This document shows positions 12,551 through 55,700 of a stretch of DNA of 64,000 bases, one piece after another. The position numbers were made by a program, and so were the translations under genes. The first letter of the stretch is position 1. Each line of letters begins with the position of its first letter. The stretch spans positions 124,001-188,000 of the forward strand of contig JAUFOR010000004.1 of assembly GCA_040285745.1 (NCBI GenBank), given 5' to 3'. The notes under the pieces were generated by a model. That model was not told the origin of the DNA. It saw only the letters and a program-made list of their open reading frames with translations, and did no database searches. Source of the DNA: Barthelona sp. PCE. Its lineage: Eukaryota.

Positions 12551-12555
12551 AATGA

Positions 12556-19816: not shown

Positions 19817-19931
19817 TTTGCACCGATTTGAAAGATTAAACTTTGTGAAAAGGATGTGAAAAGGATGAAAAATAGTGTTATACCTTTTATCATCTTTTTT
19901 ATAAAGGGGACTATATGTTAAAAGCTGGTAA

Positions 19932-31700: not shown

Positions 31701-34700
31701 ATGCTGTATTGAACATTGGTGGTTTGTTTTCAGCCAATAACAACGCCTTTGTGTTCATTAATCAGTACGCCAAAATTCGCCCTTACGAATTCGACAGAGG
31801 CAACCTCCACTTCAAGTCTACATCAGACATTGTGCTTGATGCACCATTCAATATGACCAACCAAATCATTGAAGCTGATACTGCAGTCTTCACTCATGCC
31901 GATGGAGCACACTCCGATACTATCACAATCACACGTGGTACTCACACATGGCTTGGTGAGCAGAAGTTTGATGGAATGACCATTAGTGGAAGTTCTTCAA
32001 CCTTCAACGCTCATGTTAATGTGTCTGCGACATATCGACAAACTGCAGGTACTGTGAAGATGAAGAGCTCTGCCAATATGACTCGTCTCGAGATTTGTGG
32101 AGGTACCCTCACTGTCACTGGTGCACTGTACGTAGATAGTATTGACTTCTGCGGAGGTAAGCTATACATTGAAGGAGATCTCTTCATTGAAGATGTGGTC
32201 ATTGCGGTTACGGATTCCCTCAACGTTCTTGCCCCAGGTTCCGTTTACTCCAAGACTTTCACCATGAATGCAGGTTCTGCCACTATTTCAAGGATGTTAG
32301 TCGATGTAGTCACAGTTAATGGTGGTACGCTCCAGGTTGCCAATGGAAACATTGATGAACTGGCATGTGCGGCTGGTAACTTCAGAGTAACTGTTGATGT
32401 TAGCATTAACAGTACTGTTGTTAACAACTGTTATTTGCTGAGTGTTGGTACAATTAACCTCAACTACGTTTGGATGATTGGTGCCTCTGGCAGACTTGAG
32501 AACCAAGCCGCCTCGACCATTAATAATATTGATCAGACGCTGGGTTTCTTCTACATCAACTCACTTCCAATCGAGATCGTCAATCATACAATGCGTGGTG
32601 GTATCTTCTCCGCCAACAACCTTGTGCATGAAGTTCAGAACCTGCATTTTTACGGAGGTGATATCACATATCACACTGCTAATCAGATTCTAACCCTGAC
32701 AGGCAACAGTGAGATCCACGCAGGAACGAAGACACTTAGAAGACACATCAAGAACACTGGTTCACTCACTTTCTATGAGGGTGGTGTTCAATTAATGTAC
32801 TATACTAAGCTTGAAAACGCCATTGGTGGTGTTATTCACTTCGATAAAAGCATTACGAATCAGTATGTGTTTGATGTCAGCAACTGGAATGCTCAATCTT
32901 CAACAACAAAGGCTACATATAAGCGTAACACCCTCACCAACAAAGGAAAGATTGAGGTCAACGGTACTGTTTTCATGACAACCCAGCTCGTTGTTGAAAA
33001 TGGAGGTCTCGTAGAAGTGTGGAATGATTCACTCACTTTGCATGGTACCTCATTCGCAGGCACGTTCAATATTTTTGAAGGTGCGTTGTTGAGGTGTATT
33101 AACTATGGTCTCACAGCCGATTACCTCGGTGTCATTGAAGGTGATGGATCCGTTCTAATCGAGTCATCGTCAACCTTAAGCATTAAGGACGGTTCAAGAT
33201 ATAATATTAAGGACACCACAACAGTTCGCGGACATTTGGACATTCAAGTTGGTGCAATCATCACGTCCATTGGTTCTAATGTTGTGGTACAGTCAGGTTC
33301 AGTTTCTATCACTGACGATCACTTGGTGTTTGTTGATAACGTTACTGTATCCGGTGGTTCTGTTAATGTTGCATCGAAAATGTCCATTGCAGATACGCTC
33401 ACGATCACTGGCGGTACACAAACTTACACAGGTGAGTTTGATGTCGCACACGTTGTCCACAGCGCTGGTACACTCCGTCTACAGGGTGAAAGCGATGTTT
33501 CTGTCGACTATCACTCTTCAGGATCAGCTATGCTTAATGTTCAGACCTTGAATCTTGACATACTGCTACTGAACCTGACGGGAGGTACTGTTGACGTTGA
33601 TCCCACATACGAACTGAAGATTGTCAATCTTTATCACGACGGTGGTAACCTATTCAGTGATGGCCTCACCGTAATTGGACTCAAGTACGAGTTCCTCAGT
33701 GGAGATGTCCGCTGCTATGATGGTATTGTTCGAGTAGATGGAATAACATACATTCGTTCAATGGGAACCAAGCGCCTGTTTGGATCAACCACAAAATCTG
33801 CCACGTTATCATTCGTAGGCGATGTCCATTGGGAAGAGTCTAATATTGCACTAGGAAATAAGGCCATGTTTGTTATTGAGCCTTCCTCAATTCTAAACAT
33901 TGACTTTTGGACGGCCGATTACACGGTCTCAACGTTTGCTTCATCTTCATATCCGTCCCTCTTTTGGGTAAAGGGTTTGATGAACAAATACAACTCCACA
34001 AAGGTTACGTTCGCAGCACCCGTTACTTTCGACTCAACTACCCACGTTTACAAGGGTATCGTTGAGGTTGCGGGAACGGGTCAGTGTAACAACTACTTCA
34101 CGCTTGACAACGCAACTCTCCTGATCACTTCCAATTTCTTCTTTGGATTTGGTTCAGATATCGTTGGTTCAACCGACACCATATTAGAATTCAAATCAGG
34201 TGACATCACCACTGATCGTACTTTCTTGTACAACAATGGTACGTTCCTCATGACGGGTGCAAACGTTGTATTCGATTCTTCAACGTTCCTCATCCGTGTT
34301 GGTTCCAAGCTTAACGTAACATCAGGTAATCTGATGTTCGATCGTTCAGATTGTGAACTGGACGACGTACATGTCAGCGGTGGTGTGATGGATATTAACG
34401 CCATCGTTTCCATTGAATCACTCAACATGACAGCTCCAGGCGGCTTATTCGAGCTATCTCGTTCCGTAACTATCAACGGTGATTTCGACCTGTTTGCAGG
34501 TACAGTCACTGATGACGGTCAATTGGTGGTGCTTGGTATTCTGCGTTGGTTTGGTGGTGCGATTTCGGGTATGGGCAGATTGCTAACTGATGGCTCTGTG
34601 GATATTTATGATTCTGGTTCTTCGAAAGATCTTCGTATTTCAGAATTCATCAACACAAAGGAGTGTCGCTGGCATGGCGGTGATATTGACTGTTATGACG

Positions 34701-37700
34701 ACGCTTCCTTCAAGAACCTAGGTGAATCTTCATTGTTGCTGATTCCTGGTGGTTCTATGCTTTACAAGGGCACAGATGCCGATGCGCATCCTGCGATCCT
34801 TGAAAACTTGGGTAACATTACCAAGTACGATGCTGACGAGGCTGTCTTTAATATTAAGGTTAAGGACTCTGGTCGCACTGTTCTTGTTGAAGGTGTTCTT
34901 TCTTACACAGGAGGTATCGAGTCTATGGGCTACACGTTCATCAACGACAGCGCGGTTATCCAGTTCGCTGGTCCTACACAGCGATACTTCCCTGCTGCCG
35001 AAATTGTTGGACCTGGTCTTCTACGTGTTAGTGCCGGTGCCACAGTTACATTCACATGTAAGTTCAATGTTACTGGTGATACAGAGATCGCTGGTGGTAC
35101 TGCTTACTTCGAGCCAGGTCTTCAACTGACCAACATTGGTTCGTTACTGAATATCTCAGGTGGTATATGTAATTTCCACGGTTATCCATGTATTGCTAGT
35201 GATGTTCTCGTCATTGGTGGTACTTTTATTTCTGATTCTGATGTTACAGTCAACGGTAATTTCACACAAACTGCCGGTACTGATGTACTCGACTCCAACG
35301 CTGTTGTTTTCGGTACATTCAACCTTTCAGGTGGTGACTTTGGCGGTGATGGTGCAACAACCCTTAACGGTCCTGTTCATTGGTCAGGTGGTCTGATCTC
35401 AGGAGGTAACGTCTTCGAAGCCAACGAAGAGGTCTTCCTTACAGGTGGTGATAAATTCATCAACCGTCGTCGTTTCGAACTGAGAAAATCTGCTGTCTAC
35501 GAAAGCGGTGATATTTATGGTAAAAACGCTGCAAGTCTCATCGTTTCTACAGGCTGTACTTTAGATCTAAACCCTGGTGCTGACATGTACTTCTGGGATA
35601 ACGAAGGTGTTCGACCCGAACTCGGTAATGCGCATCTGATCAACAAGCTTGGTGCATCAAAGGTCACTGTTGAGTGGTACTATAACGCAATTGCAAAGCT
35701 TGATGTCCAGGAAGGTATCTTTGATTCAGCAGGCGGTGGATGGCTGGCTGGCAACATGACACTTGCCGCGTCAACATCTTTCGAAGTCTCTGGTGGTGTT
35801 GGTTTCACATTTGCTAATGGCTCAGACGTCTTTGGTGTCGGTGAGCTGTTACTAAGCGGTGGTGATGTCACAATGATGTCAGGTGCTTCAATCTCTCTCG
35901 ATCCAGGTGCCTCCGACCTCATCGTCGATGGTGCTGATGTCGCAGTACAGGATGATGTTACGCTTACTGTGTATTCTATCACTGTTGATGGTCCTCCCAC
36001 TTCTATTCTTAACTTTGAGGGTTACAAGTCCATCAACCTACCTCCTACTGTTGTTCAGGGTGGTTTCCTGAAGGCACGCGCACAAGTTACATTCACCACC
36101 CCTGTTGAATTTACAGGTGGTGAATCAAGTTTCTCAGGTGCAGTTAATGTACAAGATACAATGCTTGTATCTGGTGGTACTCATGCATTCCACAACTATA
36201 CAACTGCTGATGCTGTTGTTACTGTAACTTCTGGTGTTCTCACGGGTGATGGCCGCCTTGATTTCCAGGACCAGCTTATCTTCGAAGGCGGAACTATATC
36301 TGGTGGTGGCCTGTTAACAGCATCATCATTTACATTCCAGACTCCCACAGTCAAGGTATTGAAGGAGAGAACAATTAACTTCGCAAGTACGCTAGACTGG
36401 ACTGCAGGTGATATCGAATTACATGACGCTGTTCTTTTTAACGTCAGTGAAGCAGCAACTCTCAATTTCGATCTTACTGGTGATTACTCACTCAAGCACA
36501 TCAGCGGTATTGACTCTGTCATTGATAACTACGGTCTTATTGACATCAACAATGGTCTGAGCTCTACTATTATGACTTTAGATGTCCTGATCAACAGTTA
36601 CGCTGATATTACCGTGACGCAGGGTATTATGGACATTTATTCAAGGTTTACGTCCGAGGATCTCATCTCTATTGCTGCTAATGGTGTTCTCCGCGTTTCT
36701 GACAACGAGTTCAGTGTTGTAGGCGGCTCACTTACCAGTGTAGGTAAGGTTGAGTTCATTGGTGGATCTTCAATTGTTCGCGATGCTACATACAATATCA
36801 TCGACACTTTGGTTGATGGTGGTGATGTAATTATTCGTGACAGTGTTACACTCACTAAGTTGGGTAACCCTGCTGAAGTGCGTTCAGGATCCTTAGATCT
36901 ACGCGTTTCTCCTCCCAGTTCATCAGATATTGACGTTACTGGTGGTATTCTGCTTTTCAACTGTCTTGACTTCAACGTTAACACTCTGGAGATCACATCA
37001 GGTGAGCTGAAAGGTAAGGGAACGATCACTGTTGATGGCTCATTCGACTTCAAGGGTGGTCTTCTCAACGATATTGGTACCATCAAAGGTGACAACATTC
37101 AGATTTACAACAGCGCAGCTTCAAAATATATGGACCAGTTCTCTATTCAGTCAACCAGTTCCATGATTTTGAATGAAGGTTATTTGTACGGCACAAAGGA
37201 TTCAAAACTTGTTGTCGACGCTGGAGCAAAACTGACTGTCTCAGGTGGTAGTACCGAAAAGCTTCTGCGTAATGCACTAGATGAGTTCACCTCTATCGAA
37301 GTGTACGGTACCCTCGAGGTATCTGTTGTAGGTACACTTGATCTGGACTGGGACATTGTCGTATATAGTGGCGGTGTTGTTGACATGAAGTTGGGCAATA
37401 TCAACCTACGCGACAGTAAGGTGAAATTCCTTGCTGGTTCAACATTCAACATTGATAATGGTGTCTTCGTATTCGCAACATGTGACCGAAACCTCTTCAT
37501 TGATAACACTGCCACATTCACAATTGGCACAGCTGGTAAGTTCCATGTGCAGAGTTTCAATGTCTTCATTGATACTCCAGTTGTAGGTGCAGGTGAAATT
37601 ATTATTTCTGGTACAGGAACAGTTGTACTTGGCGACAATGCTGACTTAACTGGTCTAAGCGGTCTTGAAGTGCAAACAGGCGGAGAACTCTACGTACCCT

Positions 37701-40700
37701 GTACTTCGACCGACTTTGACGGTACACTCACGATCAGTGGTGGTGCTATTGACGGTGATGGTGACTTTAACGTTGCATCACTTGTTGTCACTGGTACTTC
37801 GACCGTGCGCAACCTTGTTGTCAACGTTGATGATGTTACTGTCTCTGGAATCCTAATTCTTCAAGAGGCTGTCATTTTTGCTGCTGCTACATTCAAAACT
37901 ACGAACGCTGTTGCAAACACATATATTAGGTTCCGTAGTTCCGAGCTCCAAATTGGTGCTAGTGCTACTCTTACTATCGATGGTACAAGCTCCCATCTTT
38001 ATTTCCAAGATTATGATGTTTTCGAAAAGGAGTCTCTTGTTTCTATTCTGGGAACAGTTACTGTAGGCTCACATAAAATCATTCCATATGTTCGTATTTC
38101 GATAGATGCTGCCGCATCATTCACACATACCACTGATTTCGCCGTATATAACGACGTTTACATTGATGGTACAGTGACAATGACTGATGGAATTGATTTT
38201 ACTGCTCTAAATGGTGCAAAGATCACTTTCTCACCGTCTTCAACTTTTGTTAGTGGTGTGCTTAAAGCAAGTACTAACGGTATTGTTGAGTTCAAGGGTA
38301 CATCCACAGCTACCAACCACTTCTTCGTGAACAGTGGTGATCTCATTCTTGATGGGAATTTCGATATTGCAGCGGCATTAGAAGTTCAGACCAATGGTCA
38401 TGTGTACGTAAAGCAAAACAGCGCCGCAGGTCTTCCTAACACAATTATCCACAATGGTGGTACTGTGCACTACGAAGTTGACACTGATGTTGTTGATTTA
38501 ACCCTTTACAGTGGTGGTGATATTTACATTGATCCTGAGGTTACTATTTCCTTAAAGTCAACTGGTACAGCCACATTCTTGGGCGGTAACATTCGAAGCC
38601 ACTTTACAGGCATAATTAACATCGATGCAGGATCTACTACAGTGTTTGGAAATGTGGGCTCTAGTGGCAGTGTGTACTTCTTTGAAGGAACAATTAACGT
38701 TGAGGGAACAATGAACCTCGACTACAGTTACCTCTATCTCAAGTTCGATGCTACAATCAACGTTGCAGTCGGTGGTGTACTCACTCTCAAACCTACCCAA
38801 GATGTTGCTAACCGTCATCATTATATTGAGGGCGGTACTATTAATATATATGGTGCGTTGAAGGATGAGCGAGCAAACTCAGACAGTAACGATTATTGGT
38901 ACATCAAGACATCTTTGAACATTCATAATGGTGGTGTTTTCAATATGGACAATGGTGTTGTTTTGTTGTATGTCGAATCCAACGTTCATGCTGGTGCTAA
39001 TATTCTTGGCACAGGTGCTTCACGATTGGACTATGAAAGTGGTATCCATACCCTTGCAGGTGTATTTGACGGTTACTACCTTCAAACATCGGGTGCTGAT
39101 GCAACAACTCTGACTGTAACAGGACAGATTACTGCTTCTCATCGTTGTTATTTCAATTCAATTGTTTACTACGATAGTGTCGATCCCATTAGCTGTTTGA
39201 ATGATAAGGTTGAGATCCTTGATGATTTCCACATTGTCTCGTTCCTCACACCTCAGAACATTGAGTTTGCAGTCACAAGTGATGCACGTTTGTTCATTGA
39301 AACCAATATTACAATCGATAACCTCCTCTTACAGACATCAACCAATTATGGTATTTATCTTTTAGCAACTCTTAATATTGCCAATACTTTTAATTGGCAG
39401 TATGGTGACTTTCACGGTACCCATGCACTTGTCGCCAATGACATTATAATCAATAGTGCAAGTAATAATCGTCGTGTTTATGATTCTGCAACTGTTCATG
39501 TGATTAACATATTAACTTGGAGTCATGGTAAAGTTGGTCTGTACGATACGGCTTCATTTGTCTTGAAACCAGGATCAACAGCCAATCTCGGATTCGTAGA
39601 TCACTATTATGGTTTCATGGGTGGTTCAACAGGTTACTTTATTCTGAATGGAGCAACAGTCAATTTCCAGTACACTAATGACTACTACGGTGATTTTTGC
39701 GCCAACATTCAGGCAAAGGACACAACGTTTAACTTCCGTCGCTGCCGTACTCGAGTGTATGCTCTTTACAATAAGTTTGAGAACTGTCTGTTTACATTCG
39801 ACTCCACATCCTCATACGATGACTTGGACTTCTTCACTGGTGAAACTCACTTGATTGACACCACTATGACGTTCACAGATAGCAACGATAAGTTCCGTGT
39901 TGATCACGGGTCCAAGGTTATGATGAGTGGTACGACAAATATCGCAATGGTGCATGGAAATAACATTATTGGACAAGGTACATGTTCTGGTGACCGTGGT
40001 CTTTATATCACAGACACTCTCAACGTGGCTGGTTCTGGTCGTTTCAGCTTCAGTAGTGGTTTCCATACATACTGGCATGATAACCCAATCATCAACTATG
40101 GTGTTTCAACCATAGCATCAGGTGAGCACTTCATCGTGGACACAACGTTCATTGATATGCTCAACATCACAACAGGTGCAATCTGGATTGTGTCAGGTAC
40201 TGTTAGCATCAACACAGTCAGTTGGACTGGTGGATACTTATACGGTATGAATGACCCTAATGATGTAACGGTGCTCAACATTGATACATTAAGTTGGAAC
40301 AACGGTTATTTGTACCAACATATAATGTTGAACGTCGATCACTTCTTTGCCAATCCAGCTTTAAACACACACATACAGTTCGGTGCTGGCTCTGTTGTCA
40401 ATGTTTTGATCGATGGTAACTTTACAGGTGGATACTTGTATGGTTCTATGAATAGTTTGTACGGTGCCAGACTTGTAATCGAGACTGGTGCTGTTTTTAA
40501 TATTTACTTCGACAATGGTGCATCATACTTTTTCCGTCGCTATAGTAGTGGTGCATCCGAAGCTACCTTTGAGAACAAGGGAACTGTCAGATTCTATGGA
40601 CACGATGTTCCATCATGGACTGTGATTACTTCTCGTCAGTATGTTGATTGGGATGTCATCAATCATGCAGGCGCAACGATGGAGATCATCGATGGCGCTG

Positions 40701-43700
40701 ATGTAGAGTTCAGACGCGGTGGTCTCTTTGACGGTACATTCACATGCTCTGATCTCGGAACCAACGTTCGATTCGGATCACCTACCCCTTTCTATTTCAT
40801 TGGTTATTTCAACCCTGATTGTTCTGTGACATTTGATGGAAGTTCAGTAACCTATGTATACGGTGAATGGGATGTTCAAAACGATAACTTAATTAAGTTT
40901 GGTCACAAGATCTACTTCCAGGAATCCCACGAACCTGATCCGTCCAACGATCGTAAGCAGGCCTACACCACTGCAGTTATAACAACAATTGGTGTGTGGG
41001 AGAGTACGGGTAAGATTTACCTTAACTCTCACAACCTCGTTTTTGATTCAGACTTTACACAAACTTCTGGTGAGCTCCACTTTGATGGAACTATCACTAT
41101 GAACCCGGGTACAACATTTGCGTTCAACGGTGGTAATTTCTACGGTGGAACACTGAATGTTGCTGGAGATTTCCTCATTGGAAACAGTGCAGTAACTTAT
41201 TTCTACACTGGTATTATCAACCTATCAGGTTATGGTCTTTGGACTTATCAACACATTTACTTCTATGACAGCTTTGTGCTTCACATTGCAGCAAATGGTG
41301 TCTTTGAAGTTGATCCTCTTTCGTCTGGTTATGGTTGGTATCACAGTAGAACATCGAGTTCGATGAACTATGATGCTAAGATCATCAATGATGGTTTCTT
41401 TGTTGTCAACTGTAGTATACCTTCGTACTGTAACTACATGAGCATCAGACCCCTGTTTATCAATAACAACGGATCTCACTTTGCAGCTGGTAACACTCGA
41501 TTCTTATCGAGCACAGAGTGGTACGGAACAACAAACGTTTCTGGAAACGCCATTCTTTCATTACATGCAGAATCAACGTACAATCCAGTCACGCATGTGT
41601 TTGACGATACCATGATATGGTTGAATGAATCCACGTCTATTCTTAGTTGTGAGAGTGGTACAACCATTTTCAAGAATACAATCGATTACTACGGTGATCT
41701 TTCTGCTTTCGGTGGTGCTATTGATTTCGATCCGAGCGTTGATCTTGTATGGATGAACGCCGAGGCCAAACTTACCATTCAGGGTTCAACATCAAAGACA
41801 TACCTAACACAGCTACCCAACAACTTTATTTGGGAATATGTTGAGGTTAAAAGCGGTGAGCTCATCATTACTGAGGATCTTGCTATACGTCGTCTTGAGC
41901 AGAGCGCAGGCATAATTGTCATCAAATCCGATGTCACACTCAGTGTAATCGAAAAGTTTGATGTTTCAGGAGGTTATATTCGTGAAGATGGTGTTCTAAA
42001 CGTCAATACAACTGATTACTGTAACATTCGAGGTTCTTATTATATCCGCGATAATTCTGTACTGCAAATTAATTCCACTTGTAACATTATGACATCAGCA
42101 CGTGTCGACCTTCATGGTGAATATTCACGTTTTATCTTGACTGAGACTGGTATGCTAAACGAAACTATGACAGGTGTCAAATACTTTGACTGTGTGCGCG
42201 CTGCTGCTTCCACTAATGGTGGTTGTTACTTCTACGGTACATACTGGCGTAATGTGTCCAGTTCGAATTCAGGTATGCAGATGTTCGGTACAATCATGTA
42301 CTATGACACGTTTGAGCTTCATGATTACACGAATGCAACCTCATACCCATCATCCGAGTTCAAGTTCACTGACGGAACAGGTGAGATGCGCATCGACGGT
42401 ACCATCTTCATCTATGACGATGTTATCATTGACTTTGCAGGATCACCAGTTTATTTGTTAAGTAACGGTCACGTTAATGTGTACGGTACAATGAAGTCCA
42501 GTGGTACTGCTGTCAAAATCCATGGTACAGTTGAGTTCCATCCAGGATCCCTTCTGCATGTTACACAATACAGCTCCATCACTTCTCACACACATTTCAT
42601 GGATGCTGAATATCAGATAGTTGATGGTGTACGCACCAAGACCGAGGAAGCTGGACGTCTAGTTGGTATTGATAATGCACGTTTCAAGTTCGTTGGAGTA
42701 TCTTCTTACGTTGCTCACATTCACTTCCACAGCAACAATCTCACTCTTCACAACCTTGATTGTGGTCATAACGCTTATTTACACATTAAGTCTTCTATGG
42801 TTTTAACCGGAGACGTTAAATTAGACCGCTGTACGTTCAATTGGAACGATGGTGTAAGTTATGTTGAGCGTTTACATGGTGACGAGAAGGTTCCTACTCT
42901 TTGGATTCCAACTGGTACCAATGTCGAAGCTGTAAGCCATGTTTATTGGGGTTGGATCCGTGTTATGCATTATGGTAACACTCATTGGAACACAGGTGGA
43001 ACATTCCATCTTTATTACGGGGCTGTGTTTGAGAACCATGGTTTGCTAAACTTCACATCAAGTTTCTCAATGACTACTACCTCTGGTTCGTTTATCAACA
43101 GTGGTGATGGTAAACTACATGTTACAAAGTATGGTTCAGCCATCACAATGGATGTAACCACTCATTTCATTAACAATGGTTTGGTTGCCCTCGACTCCGA
43201 TAATTCTGGGTCTTGGATTCGCTTCCAATCGCGTATGAACTCGACTGGTGAATTCCGCTTCGAACAGGGTTATATTAGATTCTATGCTGATATTTTCTAC
43301 TTGCTTCCTGGTAACAAGTTTACAGGTTGTCCAAGTTTGATTGATTTTGAGTATGAAGTTTCACGCACATATTGGTTTGATGGTTTCTATCTTGACAGCA
43401 ACTGTCCATATGAAACAAACCTTCGTATTCACAGGAATCGTAATCAGATTTTCTTCCCCGAGTTCTACACAGACTTTTCTACTGATCCACCAACACGTAT
43501 TCCCAGTCAGGATATCGATAACTTATCCGGTAAACCTCATCATTTCCAACTTATTGGTACCACAAGTCCATATTGGGTTTCTGTGTATTTCGAAAACGTT
43601 AACTCTCAATGGAATGAGTTCTTCCTGGAGCACGGAGCTATACATTTAACCAATTCAAAAATGGTTGTTCATGAATATGCCGATCTTCGTCATTTCTCCA

Positions 43701-46700
43701 TCATGGGATATGGCTATGATTCAATATTTGACTTAATGAACGTTACTACTATTAGTCAAAATAATAACAAACACATGTATGGTAATTTAACAGTTCGTAA
43801 TTACGGTGATCTGTATCATGATGATGGTCATATCTATATGAGCTGTTTCTATGAATATGGTACCCGTTTCATAAACTATGGTTATTACAGAATCAATTCT
43901 GCTAACCATGGTTATTATCACTCAAATAGTCGTCGTGCAATGTATATTAACCGCGGTAAATTTGAGTATTATCGACAAAGTAATTACTATGTTGAATTTG
44001 ATTGGGCCTTCATTGAAGAGTCGAAGCATCATTGTATTCGTCCTGATGGTGATTGTGGATTTGTAATTAGCAGTTCTGCTACTGATATAAATAGCTACGG
44101 TCTCCGGTTCAGGTATGGACCTCTTCGCTTCAATGGTACTGTGTTCAACATCACTTCAAACGGTCGTGTTAGATTTGGTCAACATGAAGAACGTACTGTT
44201 TTCATTGATACAAAACTGAATTGTCAGAGTTCTGGTTTGATTGTGCTCGAATCTGCTGTTAATGACATCTATGATTCAGATTGGTCAGACGTATATAACG
44301 GTGGATATCCGTGCTACAGATTATGGACTGGTGTCACAAACGCATTCAACTCAAACATGGGTAACGGTACAGATGATATGCAACGTTACACAAGTTCTTG
44401 GATGACATTAATGATTCATGAAGGTTCAACTTTTGTACCTGCTTCGAATATGTTCTTACTTACAACATATGATAGATTTGGTGTAACCTCAACCAGTGGT
44501 CCTCGTGTTTATGAAACTCCAAGATTGGACATCAAGGATGGGTCAACTCTGTTTATTGGTAAGGATGTTACATTTGTTGTTCATGATCAATGTAATCTTT
44601 ACTATGGTCGTGTTGTTGGTGAAGGAACACTGGACTGTCGTGGAACAACCACAATTTTCAACAGCAATCATTTTTACTTCCTGACAAAGAAGGTGCTTCT
44701 TCAAAACACCGTTTATCAATCACATTATAATATGCTGGTCGGAAGGGATACCGAAATTACACTGTACAACAATTCTGTTTGGGAGTGGAGACCGGGTGCC
44801 AGTAGTCACTACACATTCAGTATGTCAGGTTCATGTGCCTCATACGGTTGTTCAGCTCGCTTCATAATTGAAGAAGGTTCATCCTTTGTTGCATCCAATT
44901 CATACTGTTTGCTCACAATGGCCGTTCCTCTGATCAACCATGGTACAGTCGATTGGACAGGGTACAGTTGTGACTTCTACATGAGTCCAGTATATGATTT
45001 ACTTGAGAGATCAACTGGTCTGTACACGTTTGGCACATCAAGCGTTTACTTTACAACTGGATACTGGGTATTTGGTCCCAATTCAACATATGCTATTGAT
45101 GGAGCTGAAACATTCTCCATTCAAGGCGATTCAGTTTTCCGTGTTGTTGATCACGAAGATTGGGTGTTCATTGGTGTTGTAAGACCTAAGAATACAGCAA
45201 GAATAGAGTTCGTCAACACAACAGTTACAGACCTCGGTTCCATCACTTCATTTGATCAGCAATCTGGTATGTACTGTTACGGTGATGTTATGTTTGATAC
45301 TTCATTTGACATTAATGGTGGATATCACCATGCTGTTGCTGGCCGATGTATCTTCCTGCAACCCATCATTATCATGCAGGCAACGTATTTCTATGGTCCT
45401 AGTGCTTTCATTTTCGAACAACAACTTCGAATTCAGGCACATACGTATTGGTACGATGCTCGTGTTGTGTTACATGATGGGCTTTTGCACTCTTCAGGTC
45501 AGATTTACGGTCAAAGTAGTAACCGTGATGAATCATATGCAGATCACTCAGTGTTCGAGTTCTTAGGTGAGGCTACATTTAGTTCAACAGCAACAAGCCC
45601 AGTCACATACTCAACAGGTTCTGGTCCTAATGAAAGTGGTTACTTTATCACCTTTATCATTCGTGAAGGTGTAACAGCTACTTGGAACAGAGGTGGAAAC
45701 TACTACGTTGAGATCATCAACTATGGTACCATCATTAACGACGCTACTTCAGATGTCACCTGTGCGTATGGTTTACGCTTGAAGAACTATGGTACTATTT
45801 TAGCTCAGTCTGCTAGTACATTCTACAAGAACTGCGAAATTACCAACTACAATTTGCTTTCTATCGATGGTAACATTGGTCATGTTCGCAACTTTGGTAC
45901 TATCAACTTCATTTCTGATTCTGTCACAGCCGACTGTGGTTACTTCTTAACTGAATCCACTTCAGTCATTTACATGTATATTGGAGCAACTTACACACGT
46001 CTAATCTCATCAGGTGTTGTACGCATGAAGGGTGATGTCCATATCTCTCTTGATCAAGATGATCCAATCATTGACGTGAACCTTTGGAACGGTCAAATCA
46101 AGGAGGATGTTGCAACATATCACATCTACAACCACACCACTGGTGAAGCTGTTGGTGAAAAGGCCGTGAATGGACGTTACATTGAGATGAAGAGTACAAC
46201 AAGTGTTATTGCTGTTGCTGTCAACCACTGTCCCAACGATTGTTCAGGCCATGGTTCATGCACAACCGCAACTGGTGTTTGTAACTGTGATTTTGGTTAT
46301 TTCAACGATGACTGTTCAGGTCTATGGTGTGGTGATTGCGGTGACGGTTTGTGTGTCCAAGGTTCTTGCCTTTGTAAGGGAGAATCTGAAGGTAACTGGT
46401 GTGAGAACACTTTGGCTAGTGGCACTGTTGAATACAGCGAGGCTATTGGTGAATGGTTCGGTAACCCATGGGTTTGGGTACCCAACCGCTATCCTCGTGA
46501 TATTGATTCGGTCGTCGTATCAGGCGGTCCTCTTCATGTGACACAATCAACTTTAATTGAAGAGCTTGATGTCAGCGGTTATTTGATCGTTGATGAAAAT
46601 GTCATCCTCACTGTCAACACTACAATCACTGTTACTGGAACACTTGAGGTCAACGGTCGTCTAATCTTAAACCAGGACGGTGTTTTGACAATGACATCTG

Positions 46701-49700
46701 GTAAGCTGTCTGGTACAGGAATCATTGATATTCGCGGTGTATCTGCTTTTAGCGATGGACCTGTTGAGTTCGATGGTGTACAAGTCAGATTGGGAACATC
46801 AACTGGCATTCACAACCTTGATGGTTCAATAGTTGGACTGTTCCACTTTATTAACCATGGTACAGTTACCTTCACTGGTAATAACACTGTGAACGATCAC
46901 GGTTCAACCCTTTATTACCGCGAGGATTACTCTGCCAGTAGTTTCACTTTTGCACTGATCAACTTCAATAACTTGTTCGTTCCTTCTGACAACACTAGCT
47001 TCCCAAGAGTCCGATCATTGAACGCTTCAAACATTCAGGTCTCTGAAGGGGCCGTGTTCAACGTATCCAGCGGTCATCTTGATGGTCTTTTAGAGATTGG
47101 TGGTACTCTGCTATTCAGCTCTGAGTTCCATCACGATGTTGATTCTGACCACTACCTCTGGCTTGGTAAGAAGTATGATCATTTCTATAATGCCCTTCTC
47201 ACTGGTGAAGTCACACATCATGGTTCCAAATATGGTACTATTGCTTGTGATCATATGCATGTTGAGACCAGGCAATCATTAAGTATCGACACAAACTTTG
47301 ATATCGGTGAGCAGTGCTGGTTTGAATTCACTGATATTTCACGTATTAACTTGAGAACTATCAAACACTCTGGTGTCAACGCAACATCTGTCTTCTGGTC
47401 AGGTGGTGATACATCCGTTGCAGCAACGGGTACTTACTATCCACCAACAGGTTCAGATTTCGACATCCAGTTCGGTTCAGTGTTGTTCATGATGCCCGTC
47501 ATTTTCGATAATGACATTGAGATCGGTGGTTGTGTTCAGGGTTTTGCTTCTATTACTTTCAAGGGTATAGTTGAATTCAAAGACTTTGGTTCTGAGGATG
47601 TTATTTGTGTCAACGTTGAGGTGATGCAAGGTGATGTGTATCATACAATCAAACCTAACAACACTCTTATCTTTAAGAACGTTGTCGACTTCAATGGTGG
47701 ACAGTATTACTTCCTAACACCCAACACTCAGATGTACTTCCACGGAACTGTGACAATCACCCCTTCATCAGATTCGTTCTTCGATTGTCCTTCAGATGAT
47801 TGCTGGTTCGAACTTATAGATAGTGCTCAAATCTTTATGAACACACCTACACCATCTGTTTCATTTGAACTCAACGGTTTCAATGGTGTGATTCACGATA
47901 AGATTATTTCTATTTCACAAGGTCAATTCTACATAGACGCTCTTTGGATCACTGAATGTACAATTAACATTGCTACAAACGGTATCTTTGGTGTTAACAA
48001 CCGTATTACATCAACTATTTACCATGATCTTTGGATCAGAGCATATAGCAAACGTATTGCTGATGCTTACGCTTCTATTGCTTACAGTACCCTCACTGGT
48101 TCAGGTAAGTTAAAGGTAAAGCAGGGTTATGGTGTTTTCACAAACGTTGACACATCTTCCTTTATTTCAACTCGCCTCCACGAAGTTGTACATGGTGAGC
48201 TGAACATCAATGGTACTGATTTCAGCGAGCAGAGCTTCCATGTTGATGATGATGGTACTCTATCATGTCGATGGGTGTCATGTGATGTTAAGGATGTTAG
48301 TGTTGCGAATGGTACTCTTTACTTCTTCGCTCAAAAGGATGATATGAGCTTCAACATTCGCGGAGACCTCACCATTGCAGGTCGTGGTGGATTCAGTGGT
48401 ATTCATGATACTACTTTCCAGACTCCCAAGCACTTTCATTACCGCATCAATGTTTACGGAACAGCTGATATTTCTGGAACAGACGTATTTGTTACCAATT
48501 ATCAACACGTTCATTTCCATGGCACTGTGAACATCCATGACGCTTATATTGTGATGGGTAATTCAGCTGCTAGAGCTTCACTGAAATTCTTCGGTGATCA
48601 GCTCAACATGGGTGTTGGAGGCACAGATGTATTTGTTGAATCTCCTATTAATGTTGACTATCACGGAAGTTGGGTTGTGAACAGTGATACAACCATCGAT
48701 GCTGGTGGTAACGTAACCATCGAATCGAGAGTGGTCTTTACTGATGTTGACTTGACGTTAGCTACAGATCCCGATACCATTTTTGTTATTAAGGGTCCTG
48801 GTCAGTTCTACAAGACACACATTACTCTTGGTGATGAAACGACGTTCAAGGTTATCAATCACTTCACTGATGATGATCACAGCGACTTCACGCAGTTTGA
48901 TGCGTTGACTGTCATTGAGGGCACTGGTCAGGGTAACTTCCATATTGGTGGATATCAGCCCATGTTTATGAACGCCACAGTTAACTTTGGCGGTATGATT
49001 CATATCGAACAAGATTTGGTTGGAAGCGAAGGTGCATATCCGTATCATGTTGTCTATATTGGAACTTCTTTCAAGATTAATGTTCAGAAGCCTTCCTTCA
49101 ACGTCAGTTATCATAGATTAAATATCGCTATTGGCCAATCTCTCGTCATCAACCAACTCCATATTGACGGTAATCCGTCCAAGCATGGTGTCAAGTGCGG
49201 TGGTCAGATTAGAATGGATGAGTTACACTGGAAAGGTGGTTATCTTACGTCCACTCATACTGATTTTGCTAATCGCAAATTCAGAGTTGTTGGAACAATC
49301 AACCCCTCAACGTTGACCAGAGGAAACTACGACATGTACCTTAGTGGTATGTTGTACATTGAATCTGGAGCTACAATGATTTGGAGCAGTGGTCGGGTTT
49401 ACGTATCACATGGAAGTTTCGGTAAGATTCACATTATGAATGGTGGTACTTTCGAGGAGCGCCCAACAGAGAATCTTGAGATGAAAAACAGTGGTGCGTA
49501 TGGTCACCTCGTCGTTGATGGTGTATATCGCCGTAAAGCAGGTTTTACTGGTACTACCACGTACAACGTTTTACTTGCTGGTTCTGGATTATTCGTTAAT
49601 GAAGACGGTACTGATGATATGATTTCATATTTAACAACAACGTTTACTGGTGTATTCCAGAATGATGGAAACTTCCTTTCGAAGAGTACCACTCATTTTT

Positions 49701-52700
49701 ACTGTACCATAAGTTCAGTTGAAGCGGATGCACGTTTCAACTTCTTCTCTACTTCCTCTAAACTATACTTCCACGGTCCGGTCGACTTTGGAGGTACGTT
49801 CAACGTCACAACAGGTTATGTCTACTTTGTTCAGCAAGACGACTCTGCCACTATTGGAACAATGCTTCTCCAGGCAGGTGAAGTCCACGCAACAGAGGAT
49901 AGCTATGGTCAAAAGGCGCTTGTCAAGTACAGCTACCTTGAGATGACTGGCGGAAACCTTCGCGGTATCGGTACGCACTTTGCAGACTCGTTCAATTGGT
50001 TTGGTGGTAATATCTTAGATGCTGGTTATCTGGTCATTGATACCGATGCGCAGTTCCTTCCGCTATCTGGCACGACTCTTTCTCTTTCACAGAGACAAAT
50101 CGTCAACAATGGTACCATCACAGTTTTCACTGAGATTCTGAAATGTCAGCAGCTTGGTTCAATTAAGAACCTTGAAGATGGTGTTGTCAAGTTTGAGCTG
50201 GGTCGCCCTAAGCGCATTCACCTGTCTCTTAATGTTTATAATTCTGATCCCGCCAACTCTTGTCACTTTATCAACTATGGTTTAATGAACTCAACTAACA
50301 GCACCCATTCAATTGATCTTCTCATCGAATGGAACCTGTATCAGTACAATGAGATGACACTCATCAACTCTACGAGATTCCATTTGGATCATGCTCTCGA
50401 GTCTGTTTTCGAGGGAACAACTCATATTGCTGATGGAGGTATCTTTACTTTCAGCTCAGTTGACGTTCAGATCAAGAAATTTGCAGAATTTGAGGGTCCT
50501 GGTAAGATCTCTATTGAAGATGGTGATTTCAGGCTTAACGGCAGAATTTCTTCAATAGATTTAGATGTCGTAGGCGGTATTCTGTGGTACGAGGAGTTCG
50601 GTGAGACACTTGGTGAAGCCAACGTTATAGGTGGTGCTATCAAGTGCGCAGACACCGGTTGTACCATTGGTAACATCCTACTTCAGGGTGGTTCACTTGT
50701 TGCAACCGAGCTAATGTATGTCTCAAATAACTTCACGTGGGTAAATGGTGATGTCAGCGGTGCTGGTAATCTCATCATTCAGAATTACGCGCTTGTTAAA
50801 TCATACGAACCAAAGGTTTTCTCTGAACGTACTATTCTTGTTGAGGCGGGTGCCACTATGGAATTTGTTGACGCAGAGGTAACTGGTGAGAATTTCGGTT
50901 CTATCATTGCTGATGGTGTTGTAGATATCAAGGGACGTTGTCGTCTCCTTTCTGGTGATCCTATTGAGGTCTCTATCACATTGAACGGTGTTTCAACCGT
51001 TTCTACTACAGACGTGAATCATATCCACGAGCTAAACTGGGATATCAACGTTGAAAACTCACTGACGCTCACTGGTACCGTTCACTTTGGTGGTCTCTTA
51101 TCACTTGGTAAGGGAGCGAGTGCATCAATCTCAGTCAACAACGCAGAGATGCGTATTAGTGGCAGTGGTGCACGTGTTCAAAAGTCAATCTCAGTCATTA
51201 ACGGTGGTACTTTCAGACAGCTGCGAGGAGATATTTTCGTCTACTCGACTGGTTCTCTTATATCAGATGCATCCTCACTTGTTCTTCTCAGAAACCAATA
51301 CGGTGTTGTCTGGCCTGAGCTCGTGATATTCGGAACTATGAACGTCCCCACATTGGAGATGAACGGTTTCAACATCATGAAGCTTGAGAAGGGTGCTGCT
51401 GTCACTCTCAATTCTGTGTCTATCACTCATGACGAGTCATCAATACAATTCCGCGACGATTTCACGATTCCATCGCTGTCTATGTATCGTGGTGTACTCA
51501 GCAACGAGGCCACCCAAACTATCACGAACTTTGAGTTCACTGGTGGTAGTATCACTGGCATTGGCCACACCATTGTTTCTACTCTGTTTATGTATACTGA
51601 GAATCCCAAGGTATTTTCAGTTGGTTCCTTAGTTGTTGACGATCATTTACTGTGGTTGGAAGGTGATTTTGACCTAAATAACTACTTCCGTTTGCTCATT
51701 GACAATTCAGCCGGTACAGGCGCATTCTTGAGCAGTGGATATACTATTAAGTCTTCTGATGATACCGGTATCTTCATGAACAACGGTGATTTGACCGTCA
51801 ACACAACTACGGTTGTTGAATCTAAGTTCATTAACGATGGAGTGCTCACTATCGATTCAGTTTACCTTAACACATATGGTGAGTCCACTTCATCCGGCAC
51901 AATCACATATGCTAACAGCGGTGGTCTACTTGTCCGTGATAACATCTTTACGATCGATGCTGGATCGACTGTTTCTGGATCTTCTGTTGTTCGTGCACTA
52001 GGTGGTACTCTAATTATTAATTGTGCCAACTACGCACAGACAGGAAATTTGCGTGGTGATGTTGACGGTACTCTTATCTTCAAGGATCAGACAACATTTA
52101 ACGCTGCTGCTTTGAGTGGTTTAACTATCACCGCCTTACAGGGTGGTTTTGTTGAGTTCAGAGATCTTACTGGAACTGTTCCTAATCTTGAAACTCGTGA
52201 CCTGTGGTCTGGTGTCGCTGTCTTTGGCGGTATCATTACCACTGACACGCTTCTTTCCAGCGCTGTAATTTACGGTAACGGTGAGCTCGTCACAAGCAAT
52301 GTTTGGACGATGTTTGCAGGAACGCAGTTGAACGATACAATAACTGTCCGTAACACTGGTACAGCAACAATTGATACAGTTGTTGATCCCGTCATCGCAT
52401 TGTGGGATGAAACCCACATCATCAATGATGGTACGTTCAACGTGAACAAGGGTGCAATTGTTGGTACAGGTGCAACTATCACTAACAACAACGACTTTAA
52501 CATTGTGGCAACAACCGATAGCCCAACTTTCTCTACATCTGTCAGCGGAACCCAGTTTATTAACACTGGTACCGTTACCAAGACTGGTGTGCAGTCTTCA
52601 ACTCTCGGTTTTGAGTTCATTGCTTCTAACACTGGTGCTGTCATTGTAACATCTGGTTTCTTGCACATTAGTTCACCTTACACCGCTTTTGCTACCTTCT

Positions 52701-55700
52701 CAAAGGGTACTTTCTTTGCGGATGATGGTGCTGTGCTTGAGTTTGACCAAATCTTCCTTGATGTTGATGCTCAAGTCACATCCCATGCTAACGGTATCAT
52801 ATCGTTTGCAACAACTGGTTCAAACCCCACATCAATCTACGCAAATTACAATGTTGATGGTATCACTCGTGTTGTCGAGGGTGAAGTTCGCTTTGTCTCA
52901 TCACGCGAGTATTCCAACTACACGGTTGCTGACGGACATTATTGGACGTCTGCAGGTGGTAATCTCGTGAAGATCGGTACTGATATTGAAGTTACTGGAG
53001 GTCAACTACACCTTGAGCACTGGTCACATACAATTGAATCACTCACGGGTATCGGTGGTGAAGTTCACTATTTCAATGACTTCCAAATCGGACAGGATTC
53101 TACATTCAATGGTCTCATCCTCGACGGTGAAGACCTCGGTACTGTCTCTTTCACAAGCAGTTCGACAAGCACTGTTAACGACTTGGAAATCAAAAACTCC
53201 GTTGTCGTTGTTGATTCATCTTCTAAGCTGATCATCGATGGTGTGTTCACCCTAACGAGTACCACAATGTACGTCGATGGTGAGCTTGAAATCCAAGATG
53301 GTACCATTACCATTGAGGGAACATCGAAGATAATCATTCGAACTGGTGGTCTGTTCAGCTCTGTTGATGCCTTTGCACAAACAATTGTTGATTCAACAGT
53401 CGAGCCCACACTGAATTATTTCAAGGTAGAGAACGGCGCTACGTTTGTAAGGAACTCTGCTAATATGGAGGACGTGCTAACGATTGATGCTCACTTCATC
53501 TGCGAAGGTGATATGACCCTGACCCGTGGTACAGTACTCACAACCGCTTCATTCATCAGTTCTGGTGACGTTGTCCTGCCTCTTGGTGGACGATTAGTTA
53601 TTAGAGGAACTGAATATAAGCAGATTGGCGGTTCCATGAGCGATGGCGGTTTCGTTCTTATTGAGAGTGGAACTGTTCTTTTCAATTGTGACATGGACAT
53701 TTCTGGAACTAACGCAACTATTCGTGTTGTTGATGGTGATGTCACTATTCGTCCTACTGGAACTACTTCCTCAGATGCTTTCATCTCAAGAGTCATGCTT
53801 TATGGTGGTACAACACATTTAGGTGAGACATTATTCATCACAAACCTCATGACTGAGGAGCGCTCCTATATTGATAATGGTCTGCCCATTCTCAAGACTG
53901 AGTATGATGCAACCATTGAAGTAACCATCTTCACTGTTAACGCAATCGAGTGTCGTTTCGACCCTGTTGTTGATTTCACAATCATTAACTCGATGGACCT
54001 TGTTGGAGAGGATAATCACGACTTTTATTCTGCTCACATCCAGATCGCTGCCACTGCTGTTTTCACCTGGACTTCCGGTCGATTTGGTATTACTTCTGAT
54101 GTTATTATTGACAACCTCAACGAGATCAACTTTGCTCCTGTTGTAGCTGCTGATAACGTCATCATTTCAGGAACTGAAGGTGGTGTTATCAACAACGACG
54201 ATACAATGTACCTCCGAGGTGCATCCTATTTGTCATTCCCTGTTGTCTTTAATATCAACAACAATCTCAACCTCATCAAGGAGTTCCTATCCGAGTACGT
54301 GTTTGACCCTGTTACGACCATCACATCAGCTGTTGGCACATCATCGGTCTTCAAGAAGGGTACTGTCGAGATCAAGGGACGTATGGTATGTCACGGCACA
54401 ATCGAGGGTGATTCGTCAACCGACGGTAACCTCTTGTTCACGGACGATTCAACGTTACTTTTCTCTTCCACCTTCACTTACGTTCCTGAGAAACTTGTCC
54501 TTAACTTTGGAGGTCTCAAAGCTGAGTTCGAAGGTCATATGGATATGACTTCATCTGCAAGTGATGATTCATTCGTTGTCTCTGCTGGTACCATGTACTG
54601 GAAGGGTACAACCTTCACATCAACCCGACCCATCCATCTGACTGGCGGTTCACTCATCATGACACACGCTGTCGCTCCATCTGTGTGGGTTGACGGTGGT
54701 TCACTCTTTTCAGATTGTACTACCTGTTCAATTGCTGAAGAGCTCCGTCTCACAAGTGGTATTGTACGTACACACGGTGAGATCCAAATTTCAAAGAAAA
54801 TGGTTCAATCTGGTGATTATGCTAGTGAAACCATCACACTTGAAGGATACGGAGCAATTAACCTCAAGACAGGTTCTACGTCATCCTCCACTGGCTCACA
54901 ACTTTTGCTCGATGATCTCACGATCAATATGGAGGGTACTGCTTCCTGGAGTGTAAGCGGTGGTCGCTCTGACGCTGTTGATGCATATACATCAACAGGT
55001 AAGGTTTTGGTTGGGTCATCTGCTAATCTTTTGTTCAACGCGGATATGCCCAACCAGTGGTTCGGTCTCAACGTTGATAACGAAGGTACTATTACAAGAA
55101 ATGCTGGTGACTCTGGAAAGTCTGAACTACGCGGTGAATTCATCAATAGAGCAAGTGGTTCTGTTAACGTAGTTGATGGTACACTCATGCTCAACGTTAT
55201 TGGTGAGAATTACGGTAGCTACTCTGCTGCTGCATCATCATCCCTTGCTTTCGATACACCAAGCTTCTCTTGGAATGACGGAACAGCTATGTCTGGTCTT
55301 GGTACAGTTGATATCACTAACGGACGTGTTTCTGCACGTTGTGTTCCTTCTGCTATCACACTGAAGAATCTTAAGGTTTCAGGTGGTGCACTAGACTTCC
55401 ACTGTTCAAGTTTCACATTCGAGGATATCACAATCACAGATGGTTCATTCTACCTTTCAAAGGAAGTATCTTGTGACAATCTGTTCCTGTATGGTGGATC
55501 CATCAAGAACATTGGTAAACTCACAGCCAGCACATCAACACTTATTGACGGTAATCTGCCCATTGAAATTGTGCAATCCACGGTCGATATTGCTGGTGCT
55601 GGTGAATGGAGAGACGGTAACGTATCAATGAGTGATCTCGCTCGTGTTATTGTCAGCTCTGCGCTTGATATTAACCATCATAAGGAAGCAGACGGTTATG

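Follow-up and report, generated by a model that had tools for sequence, protein, structure and literature searches.

A giant open reading frame of Barthelona sp. PCE with two candidate beta-helix arrays separated by an EGF pair

Beta-helix fibres and adhesins of the repeat type considered here have been described from bacteria. The closest relatives of the protein analyzed below are 12 bacterial-type secreted proteins (P0115–P0126), which were retrieved by a database search with a profile of its repeat unit (E-values from 2.5e-51 to 8.9e-8) and carry T9SS sorting domains in five cases, a dockerin in one, and an M43 peptidase in one. Further comparisons are offered by autotransporter passengers and two-partner-secretion adhesins (pertactin, Ag43, Hbp, EtpA, and HMW1) as well as tapirins, which share a right-handed beta-helix rod (Z of 8–10.9), by G8 proteins, in which a start motif of the form W..W..P..D.V..I is followed by a beta-helix, and by EGF proteins of the tenascin/teneurin type. 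Here, we describe a protist gene with the same unit and start element as the bacterial relatives, to which EGF domains are added. The bacterial proteins found are 811–1,888 aa long, relatives having been sought in the 521–2,000 aa range only, whereas the giant protein exceeds 11,774 aa and is thus more than six times the length of the longest relative retrieved.

The giant ORF and its bacterial-type relatives

In the window (i.e., the whole stretch of 64,000 nt that was analyzed), positions 28679..64000 of the (+) strand form one stop-free ORF of 11,774 codons (35.3 kb), the 3′ end of which is open at the window edge; residues are numbered here from its first codon. Translation probably begins at the ATG at nt 28814, from which a putative signal-peptide-like N-terminus extends (Table 1), and we infer that the giant protein is secreted. 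The genes beside the ORF include CFAP91, Ras/Rab, UCH, and ADP-forming acetyl-CoA synthetase, and the neighbouring ORFs terminate with all three stop codons, which is consistent with the standard code. Codon usage agrees between the giant ORF and neighbouring genes (RSCU r of 0.92 and 0.86). Based on these neighbour identities, the use of all three stops, and the codon usage held in common, the giant is a gene of the eukaryotic host, a flagellate with a compact, intron-poor (small) genome that is probably anaerobic. N-glycosylation sequons are not enriched in the giant protein (133 observed vs 140 expected). Single-sequence searches covering 5,499–17,499 and 2,200–7,000 aa returned no giant-length relative in the 2,200–17,499 aa range, and full-text searches of the literature listed nothing on a giant protist protein that combines a beta-helix with EGF domains.

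The original prediction described the locus as bacterial-style rods, and the repeat units do have bacterial-type relatives, namely the 12 proteins found with the unit profile. The likeness extends to a repeat unit with a W.GG.I.G-like beginning, homologous over ~180 aa, and to the element with which the helix opens, the module start W..(N)W..(V)P...D.V.I. Specifically, the bacterial units of ~180 aa align in phase to positions ~1–180 of the giant's unit profile, which in a local check matched 12 of 12 real sequences (33–197 bits) and none of 24 reversed or shuffled ones. One relative, P0120, carries three start-helix-closure modules in series, a parallel to the serial modules of the giant. In contrast, the unit of the giant is longer (~274 aa), and it lacks the conserved ~87-aa closure element with which modules of the relatives end (conserved in eight of the 12 and present three times in P0120). 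The relatives are also of bacterial type and without EGF domains, whereas the giant belongs to a eukaryotic host and has them. Pfam and NCBIfam cover neither the bacterial family nor the giant. The only sequence-profile match in the PDB was 4wa0, a "possible adhesin" (tapirin-like), at an E-value of 4e-4.

Table 1. Features of the giant ORF in the window, with nucleotide positions, residue numbers, and the basis of each assignment
Feature	Position (nt)	Residues (aa)	Strand	Basis
Putative signal-peptide-like N-terminus (MRVTNLF...VHVSA)	28814..28912	46–78	+	Read from translation
Array 1	28907..46216	77–5846	+	22 super-repeat profile matches, 15 near full length
Module start 1, including first opener	28967..29194	97–172	+	Bacterial start profile, 14.2 bits, profile positions 15–84
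Last unit of array 1, very divergent	45455..46216	5593–5846	+	Unit profile positions 10–267; leave-one-out 15.2 bits
Proposed "closing segment"	45941..46054	5755–5792	+	Inside last unit, unit profile positions ~177–215
EGF domain 1, six Cys	46229..46315	5851–5879	+	Pfam EGF_2 above cut-off; database matches
EGF domain 2, six Cys	46328..46402	5884–5908	+	EGF_TEN partial match at aa 5846–5911; database matches reaching query 408–417
Module start 2, including second opener	46448..46894	5924–6072	+	Bacterial start profile, 21.3 bits, positions 10–136 of 138
Array 2	46505..64000	5943–11727	+	24 super-repeat profile matches, 17 near full length; goes on past window

Super-repeat arrays, module starts, and the EGF junction

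A ~274-aa super-repeat profile, trained on the giant itself, gave 46 matches that together cover 9,125 of the 11,774 residues. As read from the sequence, the rods are tandem arrays of this super-repeat, with at least about 40 copies; the super-repeat is new here and was absent from the original prediction. In leave-one-out scoring, 32 of 32 near-full units remained positive (5.5–196 bits), and the scores peaked mid-half in both halves of the giant. Independent pairwise BLAST HSPs were in phase with the unit in 27 of 39 cases, while the remaining ones were offset by ~10 to 70 positions, most commonly by ~20, which corresponds to one coil. Hydrophobic autocorrelation peaked at lags of 6–8, 13–14, 19–21, and 27 (sequence period of ~6.7/20). 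Whole-protein self-blastp returned the identity match alone, and a blastp comparison between modules 1 and 2 yielded five weak, non-colinear HSPs; a self dot-plot of the two modules agrees with two arrays. The distances are as originally predicted: the junction is preceded by about 5,750 aa, and 5,851 aa lie between aa 5924 and the end of the window.

The fold was approached with AF2 models of both flanks of the junction. The model of the start of array 2, made from a single sequence, had a mean pLDDT of 43, rising to 71–86 at aa ~5941–6040, a short-strand solenoid that continues unbroken over the boundary at aa 5998/6004, where a partial unit match gives way to the next full unit. The model of the last unit of array 1 had a mean pLDDT of 61.6 (71–84 at aa 5653–5732). 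In VIA, the former reached a Z of up to 11.8 (4phb; rmsd of 3.2, 182 aligned) and the latter up to 11.6 (8ikx; rmsd of 4.2, 224 aligned), with 102 chains at Z ≥ 8; nearly all of the matches listed are beta-helix proteins, mostly right-handed parallel ones. A Foldseek search of the PDB with the unit model gave nothing at an E-value of ≤0.001 (best, 0.69). Both flanks were modelled as a right-handed beta-helix, as the original prediction would have it, and in these two models of modest quality the super-repeat copies resemble a right-handed parallel beta-helix with coils of ~20 aa. The autotransporter and two-partner-secretion adhesins differ from the giant in that no sequence family match links them to it and neither an autochaperone nor a closure element was detected in it; likewise, no passenger-family Pfam model matched within its visible 11,774 aa. 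To our knowledge, a beta-barrel translocator is not to be expected in a eukaryote.

Each of the two arrays was originally said to begin at an opener, and this is borne out by a module-start profile built from 11 bacterial module starts only. Across all 11,774 aa, its top two matches were aa 5924–6072 and then aa 97–172, and the other matches listed lack the opener part. A short opener profile matched best at module start 1 (5.2 bits), and none of 100 block-shuffled giants reached 4.2 bits with it. Smith-Waterman comparison of the two openers showed no significant similarity (z of 0.14–0.17). The literal motif proposed for them, W..W....P...D.V, has 0 matches in the giant; a looser pattern, W..[IVL]P..D, occurs solely at aa 100 and aa 5926/5931 (three observed, about one expected). 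The landmarks of the original prediction, i.e., YGSNGNW... at aa 94 (nt 28958), YFLTESTS... at aa 5755 (nt 45941), CPNDCSGHG at aa 5851 (nt 46229), and GEWFGNPW... at aa 5924 (nt 46448), all lie where it placed them. An opener-like site at aa 806–839 scored 3.8 bits and has no Trp; as it lies just 11 aa from the next unit start, it was not accepted as a module start.

Between the arrays lies the sole stretch of the 11,774 aa with ≥6 Cys per 60 aa (aa 5851–5908). It had been assigned to EGF domains of the tenascin/teneurin type, an assignment that the EGF_2 score, the six-Cys pattern, and the database matches support. The cysteines of the first domain are at aa 5851, 5855, 5861, 5868, 5870, and 5879 and those of the second at aa 5884, 5887, 5892, 5897, 5899, and 5908, a spacing that fits the C-x3-C-x5-C-x6/7-C-x-C-x8-C type. 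Pfam EGF_2 scored 25.2 bits in an 800-aa piece and 22.7 bits in a 4,000-aa piece (gathering cut-off, 22.1), while the 234-position EGF_TEN model gave a partial match of 27.2 bits, under its cut-off of 65. When aa 5501–6300 were searched against 1.84 billion representatives, 112 matches were obtained, the best stretch of which always fell within query positions 270–444, i.e., the EGF region; the junction flanks found no homologue in this single-sequence search. In the PDB, a sequence search returned a Reelin EGF (E-value of 0.0012), with the other rows at chance level. The giant shares the pattern CPNDCSGHGSC...C.C...C with tenascin/teneurin-type EGF, and its best database matches are of ComC type (P0003; Dictyostelium ComC-type) and tenascin architecture (P0006; EGF + fn3 + Fibrinogen_C). 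Unlike tenascin, teneurin, and ComC, it has two EGF units at one place in >11,700 aa, set between beta-helix arrays, and a Pfam scan of nine of the EGF-match proteins found no beta-helix family in any of them. In the AF2 single-sequence model, the pLDDT of the EGF pair was 31–39.

The end of array 1 had been read as a closing cap resembling that of bacterial passenger-like domains, which is not supported. The proposed segment lies within the last repeat unit. A profile of the bacterial closure element scored no higher than −1.4 bits anywhere in the giant and found nothing at aa 5755–5849, so that a likeness to that element suspected by eye was rejected. The reading of the segment as an ordinary unit tail, made with a self-trained profile, is weakened by leave-one-out scoring, in which the tail of the last unit reached 7.6 bits. 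The pLDDT was 49–64 over the segment and below 50 over the final 39 residues ahead of the EGF pair, and aa 5740–5851 matched nothing in the 112 EGF-match proteins (best, 1.6 bits). Array 1 has no detectable dedicated C-terminal cap, and since the bacterial closure element is absent, the modules of the giant do not count as "capped" by the standard of the bacterial ones.

A jointed fibre and the alternatives to it

The explanation that we regard as probable is that of a secreted fibre or adhesin consisting of two beta-helix arrays and an EGF joint. Its architectural part alone (two super-repeat arrays with bacterial-like starts, parted by an EGF pair) can be put forward with good confidence, while the functional part alone (secreted rods, a joint, and a fibre/adhesin role) is drawn from analogy and is offered tentatively. 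Each array would open with a start element (W..W..P..D.V.. plus about 70–130 aa) homologous to the bacterial N-terminal start, and two EGF domains would be inserted directly past the point where the final unit match of array 1 ends, parting the arrays. Outside the cell, the two arrays may act as stiff rods with a length on the order of 100 nm apiece, provided that they are continuous, and the disulfide-bonded EGF pair may provide a short non-helical joint between them, a hinge role suggested by analogy. The whole giant could then serve as a fibre or adhesin, either secreted or at the cell surface, with adhesion proposed by analogy to its T9SS-sorted, dockerin-bearing, and tapirin-like relatives. 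Overall, the original prediction is supported in part, and the giant is an unannotated eukaryotic variant of the bacterial beta-helix fibre/adhesin architecture, with a function that we infer.

Several features would fit a single continuous repeat array, in which the EGF pair and the opener are an incidental insertion or a remnant with no joint role and the "two modules" are an artefact of reading. The units of both sides are one family, intermixed in a star-like tree (8 label changes vs ~11 in shuffles), and HSPs across the halves are as strong as those within them, without colinearity. Array 1 has no closure element at its end, and stretches without a unit match interrupt the arrays elsewhere too (aa 6568–6840 and aa 9351–9568). 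However, the element that follows the EGF pair gives the giant's best match to bacterial module starts, at nearly full length, and it lies 71–78 aa from the next full unit, a spacing similar to the 60–84 aa or so of the bacterial proteins. On either side, unit conservation also drops as the junction is approached, the pattern expected for the edges of two arrays, with leave-one-out minima of 11.9, 22.0, and 15.2 bits on the array 1 side and 5.5, 7.5, and 20.0 bits on the array 2 side. We consider a single array unlikely. As to the originally suggested fusion of two ancestral giant genes, the star-like tree with intermixed halves and the dissimilar openers speak neither for it nor against it. 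That the junction is an artefact, i.e., that two loci were joined in assembly or that the gene is no longer expressed, is hardly credible: there is no identical or related giant protein on record, as an artefact would have it, but 35.3 kb run in one frame without a stop across the junction, codon usage is equal on both sides (r of 0.95 between the halves), and the EGF pair begins in frame four residues past the last unit match (from aa 5846 to aa 5851).

The fold matches raise a further alternative, namely an array of carbohydrate-active beta-helix domains (of polysaccharide lyase, hydrolase, or epimerase type) instead of a structural fibre. Polygalacturonases, pectate/alginate lyases, pectin methylesterases, and phage depolymerases are among the top folds (Z of 9–11.8), but adhesins and autotransporter passengers reach equal scores. 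One of the bacterial relatives has a dockerin and one a peptidase, which would suit such an array, yet no sequence match to these enzyme families was found in Pfam, NCBIfam, or the PDB, where the sole sequence-profile match is an adhesin-like protein. The more than 40 repeat copies are highly divergent and have no invariant column, which argues against a conserved active site. On this evidence, an enzymatic array appears very unlikely.

Returning to the jointed fibre, continuous rods would be among the longest single-chain beta-helices proposed and would illustrate, in a natural protein, the articulation of stiff solenoid rods. The giant is a concrete candidate for what coats the surface of an anaerobic flagellate or lets it attach, and it offers a case in which transfer from bacteria to eukaryotes can be weighed against deep shared ancestry of G8-like modules. 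A more specific history, in which a bacterial-type fibre module, made up of a start element and a super-repeat array, was taken up by a eukaryote and expanded to at least two rods of ~6,000 residues, with the closure element dropped and the EGF pair becoming an articulated joint, is speculative and in our view somewhat unlikely. If true, the giant would represent a new class of extracellular fibre, jointed and a few hundred nm long, possibly with further EGF joints downstream of the window.

Resemblance of the openers to G8

The openers had also been interpreted as a G8-like N-terminal cap, which is not supported for the giant itself. The members of the G8 domain family (PF10162) include PKHD1, CEMIP, and TMEM2. 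The giant itself has no G8 match: no row was returned for the whole protein at an E-value of ≤1 or for the isolated openers at ≤10. On the other hand, three of the bacterial relatives (P0120, P0125, and P0126) have openers that resemble the start of the G8 model, aligning to its positions 2–58 at 15.7–21.2 bits, which is below threshold. P0117 scored 23.5 bits against G8, over the cut-off of 22.9, mainly elsewhere in the chain than its opener. As a separate observation, an atlas search with aa 5919–6718 gave low recognition (1536), with phage hypotheticals as the best rows (0.91); it also listed a cluster with G8 on 14% of its members (score of 0.85), and all of these serve as leads only.

Repeat architecture and predicted fold

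The giant protein is encoded on the (+) strand by an ORF of 11,774 codons that contains no stops and is open at its 3′ end. Outside the EGF region, it gave no match in Pfam, NCBIfam or PDB sequence searches, and direct comparison of its two halves yielded five weak, non-colinear HSPs. An iterated profile seeded from aa 2495–2800 revealed a ~274-aa super-repeat, with 46 self-profile matches (22 N-terminal and 24 C-terminal to the EGF pair) that span 9,125 of the 11,774 residues. Since this profile was trained on the giant protein itself, four checks were made. Among 39 independent pairwise BLAST HSPs, 27 matched the phase of the unit coordinates exactly, and the remainder were offset by ~10 to 70 positions, most commonly by ~20 (i.e., one coil). 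On leave-one-out analysis, all 32 near-full units scored positive (5.5–196 bits), nearly all in register. The unit profile also matched 12 of 12 bacterial-type proteins and none of 24 reversed or shuffled controls. Hydrophobic autocorrelation peaked at lags of 6–8, 13–14, 19–21 and 27, a periodicity consistent with three short strands per ~20-aa coil.

The AF2 single-sequence model of aa 5601–6200 was poor overall (mean pLDDT 43; 31–39 in the EGF pair), with short strands starting directly after the second opener at aa ~5941–6040 (pLDDT 71–86); this confident stretch crosses the boundary between a partial match and a full unit (aa 5998/6004) unbroken. The last unit of array 1 (aa 5593–5849), modeled from an alignment of 32 units, reached a mean pLDDT of 61.6 and a pTM of 0.60, with pLDDT values of 71–84 at aa 5653–5732 and below 50 at aa 5811–5849. 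VIA-align matched both models to right-handed parallel beta-helices (Z 11.8 to 4phb for aa 5601–6200; Z 11.6 to 8ikx for the last unit, with 102 chains at Z of at least 8), and pectinases, tailspikes, autotransporter passengers, Awp adhesins and tapirins are among the proteins listed. However, Foldseek returned nothing at E ≤ 0.001 for the unit model, and a beta-helix fold for the flanks of the EGF pair is therefore supported with moderate confidence.

Two stretches of array 2 contain no unit match. Within the more distal one, aa ~9447–9510 weakly match Laminin_G_3/ConA-like domains (E 0.0024; 18.5 bits, cut-off 27.6), and the 250-aa dot-plot window 9251–9500 is one of two that resemble no other window. 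This stretch may be an inserted lectin-like domain.

Features of the giant protein and neighboring genes
Feature	Giant, aa	Window, nt	Remark
Giant ORF (+)		28679–64000	
First opener	94 (start)	28958 (start)	
Opener-like segment	806–839	31094–31195	VP...DEAFI.NG, no tryptophans; 3.8 bits with bacterial opener profile
Closing segment	5755–5792	45941 (start)	
EGF pair	5851–5908	46229 (start)	12 Cys
Second opener	5924 (start)	46448 (start)	
Unit-free stretch	6568–6840	48380–49198	273 aa
Unit-free stretch	9351–9568	56729–57382	218 aa
Pyruvate-kinase barrel ORF (+)		5081–6085	334 aa; TTG start
ORF convergent with it (−)		6075–7994	11-nt overlap
ORF (−)		17903–20041	
ORF (+)		19932–22121	110-nt overlap with ORF 17903–20041
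Cys-rich protein (+)		24220–27162	980 aa
Tight gene junctions		11221/11225; 12550/12556; 17891/17903; 27162/27170	

EGF pair and module boundaries

The original prediction described two complete beta-helix modules with bacterial-type caps, hinged by EGF repeats of the tenascin/teneurin type, and the four strings it quoted lie where it placed them (see table). The Cys cluster consists of two six-Cys units and is the sole stretch of the 11,774 aa with at least 6 Cys per 60 residues; its first Cys follows the last unit match of array 1, which ends at aa 5846. It exceeded the cut-off of Pfam EGF_2 (25.2 against 22.1 bits), and the multi-EGF teneurin model EGF_TEN matched partially across both units (27.2 bits, cut-off 65). 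When aa 5501–6300 were searched exhaustively with phmmer against 1.84 billion representatives, the best stretches of all 112 matches fell at query residues 270–444, i.e., the EGF region; nine EGF matches scanned with Pfam include a ComC-type protein and one of tenascin architecture. Together, the EGF_2, EGF_TEN and phmmer matches indicate that the EGF typing was right.

Twelve bacterial-type relatives (811–1,888 aa; E 2.5e-51 to 8.9e-8) were retrieved with the A1 alignment profile, the search covering proteins of 521–2,000 aa and scoring the 7,997 candidates that shared most words. T9SS sorting domains are present in five of them, a dockerin in one and an M43 peptidase in one; the named sources are Winogradskyella, a soil metagenome and a rotifer assembly (one each). 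Their units measure ~180 aa, in phase with positions ~1–180 of the longer unit of the giant protein. The motif W..(N)W..(V)P...D.V.I occurs in 10 of the 12, soon after the N-terminus or, in P0117, after the peptidase domain, and a ~87-aa closure element is conserved at the helix end in 8. Pfam and NCBIfam hold no model for the unit family of the giant protein, the ~180-aa unit or the closure element. One T9SS-sorted relative, P0120, has the opener motif three times and three closure elements, each closely followed by a new opener or by the sorting domain; bacteria thus do have start-helix-closure modules in series (in P0120, aa 48–1095, 1127–1315 and 1356–1639).

A start profile built from 11 bacterial starts (~140 aa each, beginning ~10 residues ahead of the motif) had its top match in the giant protein at aa 5924–6072 (21.3 bits; positions 10–136 of 138) and its second at aa 97–172 (14.2 bits). 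The other matches listed scored at most 11.9 bits and began at profile position 21 or later, i.e., without the opener, and a shorter opener profile gave no match of 4.2 bits or more in 100 block-shuffled giants. The bacterial profile thus lends independent support to both predicted openers as module starts, although the literal pattern proposed for them (W..W....P...D.V) is absent from the giant protein; the likeness of the two openers to each other was non-significant (z 0.14–0.17). An opener-like segment lies in array 1 but is probably no module start, since a unit begins just 11 aa later. As for the proposed G8 link, G8 had no match in the giant protein, its own openers included, whereas the openers of P0120, P0125 and P0126 aligned to Pfam G8 positions 2–58 (15.7–21.2 bits, the highest being the second opener of P0120), so the link is indirect. 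P0117 exceeded the G8 cut-off (23.5 against 22.9 bits) with its best stretch at aa 449–543, well past its opener.

The bacterial-type C-terminal cap predicted at the closing segment is unsupported: the closure-element profile reached at best −1.4 bits across the giant protein, with nothing at aa 5755–5849, and the segment aligns to ordinary unit positions ~177–215. Leave-one-out scores near the junction (7.6 bits for the tail, 15–16 for the whole last unit) lend weak support to unit identity, pLDDT at the closing segment is 49–64 and the final 39 residues before the EGF pair are unmodeled; a dedicated cap, not detected here, may therefore exist at the end of array 1.

Tandem arrays usually have divergent edges and a homogenized center. 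Leave-one-out unit scores in array 1 were 24 at the N-terminus, 70–196 at aa 1300–2800 and 12–22 at aa 4423–5846; after the EGF pair they were 5.5–20 at aa 6004–7075, then up to 30–92, and the dot-plot repeats this low-high-low/low-high pattern. Together with the start element after the EGF pair, the pattern favors two arrays over one, but completeness is more than can be claimed, as array 2 extends past the window. The visible part contains neither another EGF cluster nor another full module start. An assembly artefact at the junction is unlikely. The two arrays may have arisen when two genes fused, when a whole module was duplicated or by insertion; the unit tree is star-like with intermixed halves (8 label changes versus ~11 in shuffles, values as low as observed occurring in 22–33 of 500 shuffles) and hence favors none of the three.

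Proposed function and novelty

The signal-like N-terminus (a hydrophobic stretch after the ATG at nt 28814, seen by eye in the translation), the beta-helix rods, the surface-sorted and dockerin-bearing relatives, a PDB profile match to the tapirin-like adhesin 4wa0 (E 4e-4) and the extracellular-type EGF suggest an extracellular fiber or adhesin, in which two rods would be linked by a short, disulfide-stabilized EGF joint. A beta-helix rises 4.8 Å per coil; ~5,750 aa at ~20–25 aa per coil would give a rod on the order of 100–140 nm, if continuous. An enzymatic role is less likely, given no enzyme family match for the giant protein and no invariant column across the 32 units. Its architecture is like that of bacterial beta-helix fiber proteins but differs in its eukaryotic host, ~10-fold size, EGF spacer and lack of the closure element; the listings of full-text literature searches contained no description of such a protein.

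Gene and neighborhood

Codon usage of the giant gene correlates with that of its neighbors (RSCU r 0.92 and 0.86) and between its halves (r 0.95), so the gene looks resident rather than recently acquired. Genes upstream are eukaryotic (CFAP91, Ras/Rab GTPases, UCH protease, ADP-forming acetyl-CoA synthetase, glycerate kinase), several neighbors are separated by just 3–11 nt, and ORFs end in TAA, TAG and TGA, as in the standard code. The host is inferred to be a flagellated, probably anaerobic protist whose genome is compact and poor in introns. The Cys-rich protein encoded directly upstream of the giant gene combines Ephrin_rec_like, ELAPOR1-type TNFR-like and NCD3G-like repeats and is similar to high-cysteine surface proteins found in diplomonad-type flagellates. 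Given the 110-nt overlap, the (+) ORF concerned probably starts farther downstream than nt 19932. The pyruvate-kinase barrel ORF model may be truncated or start elsewhere.
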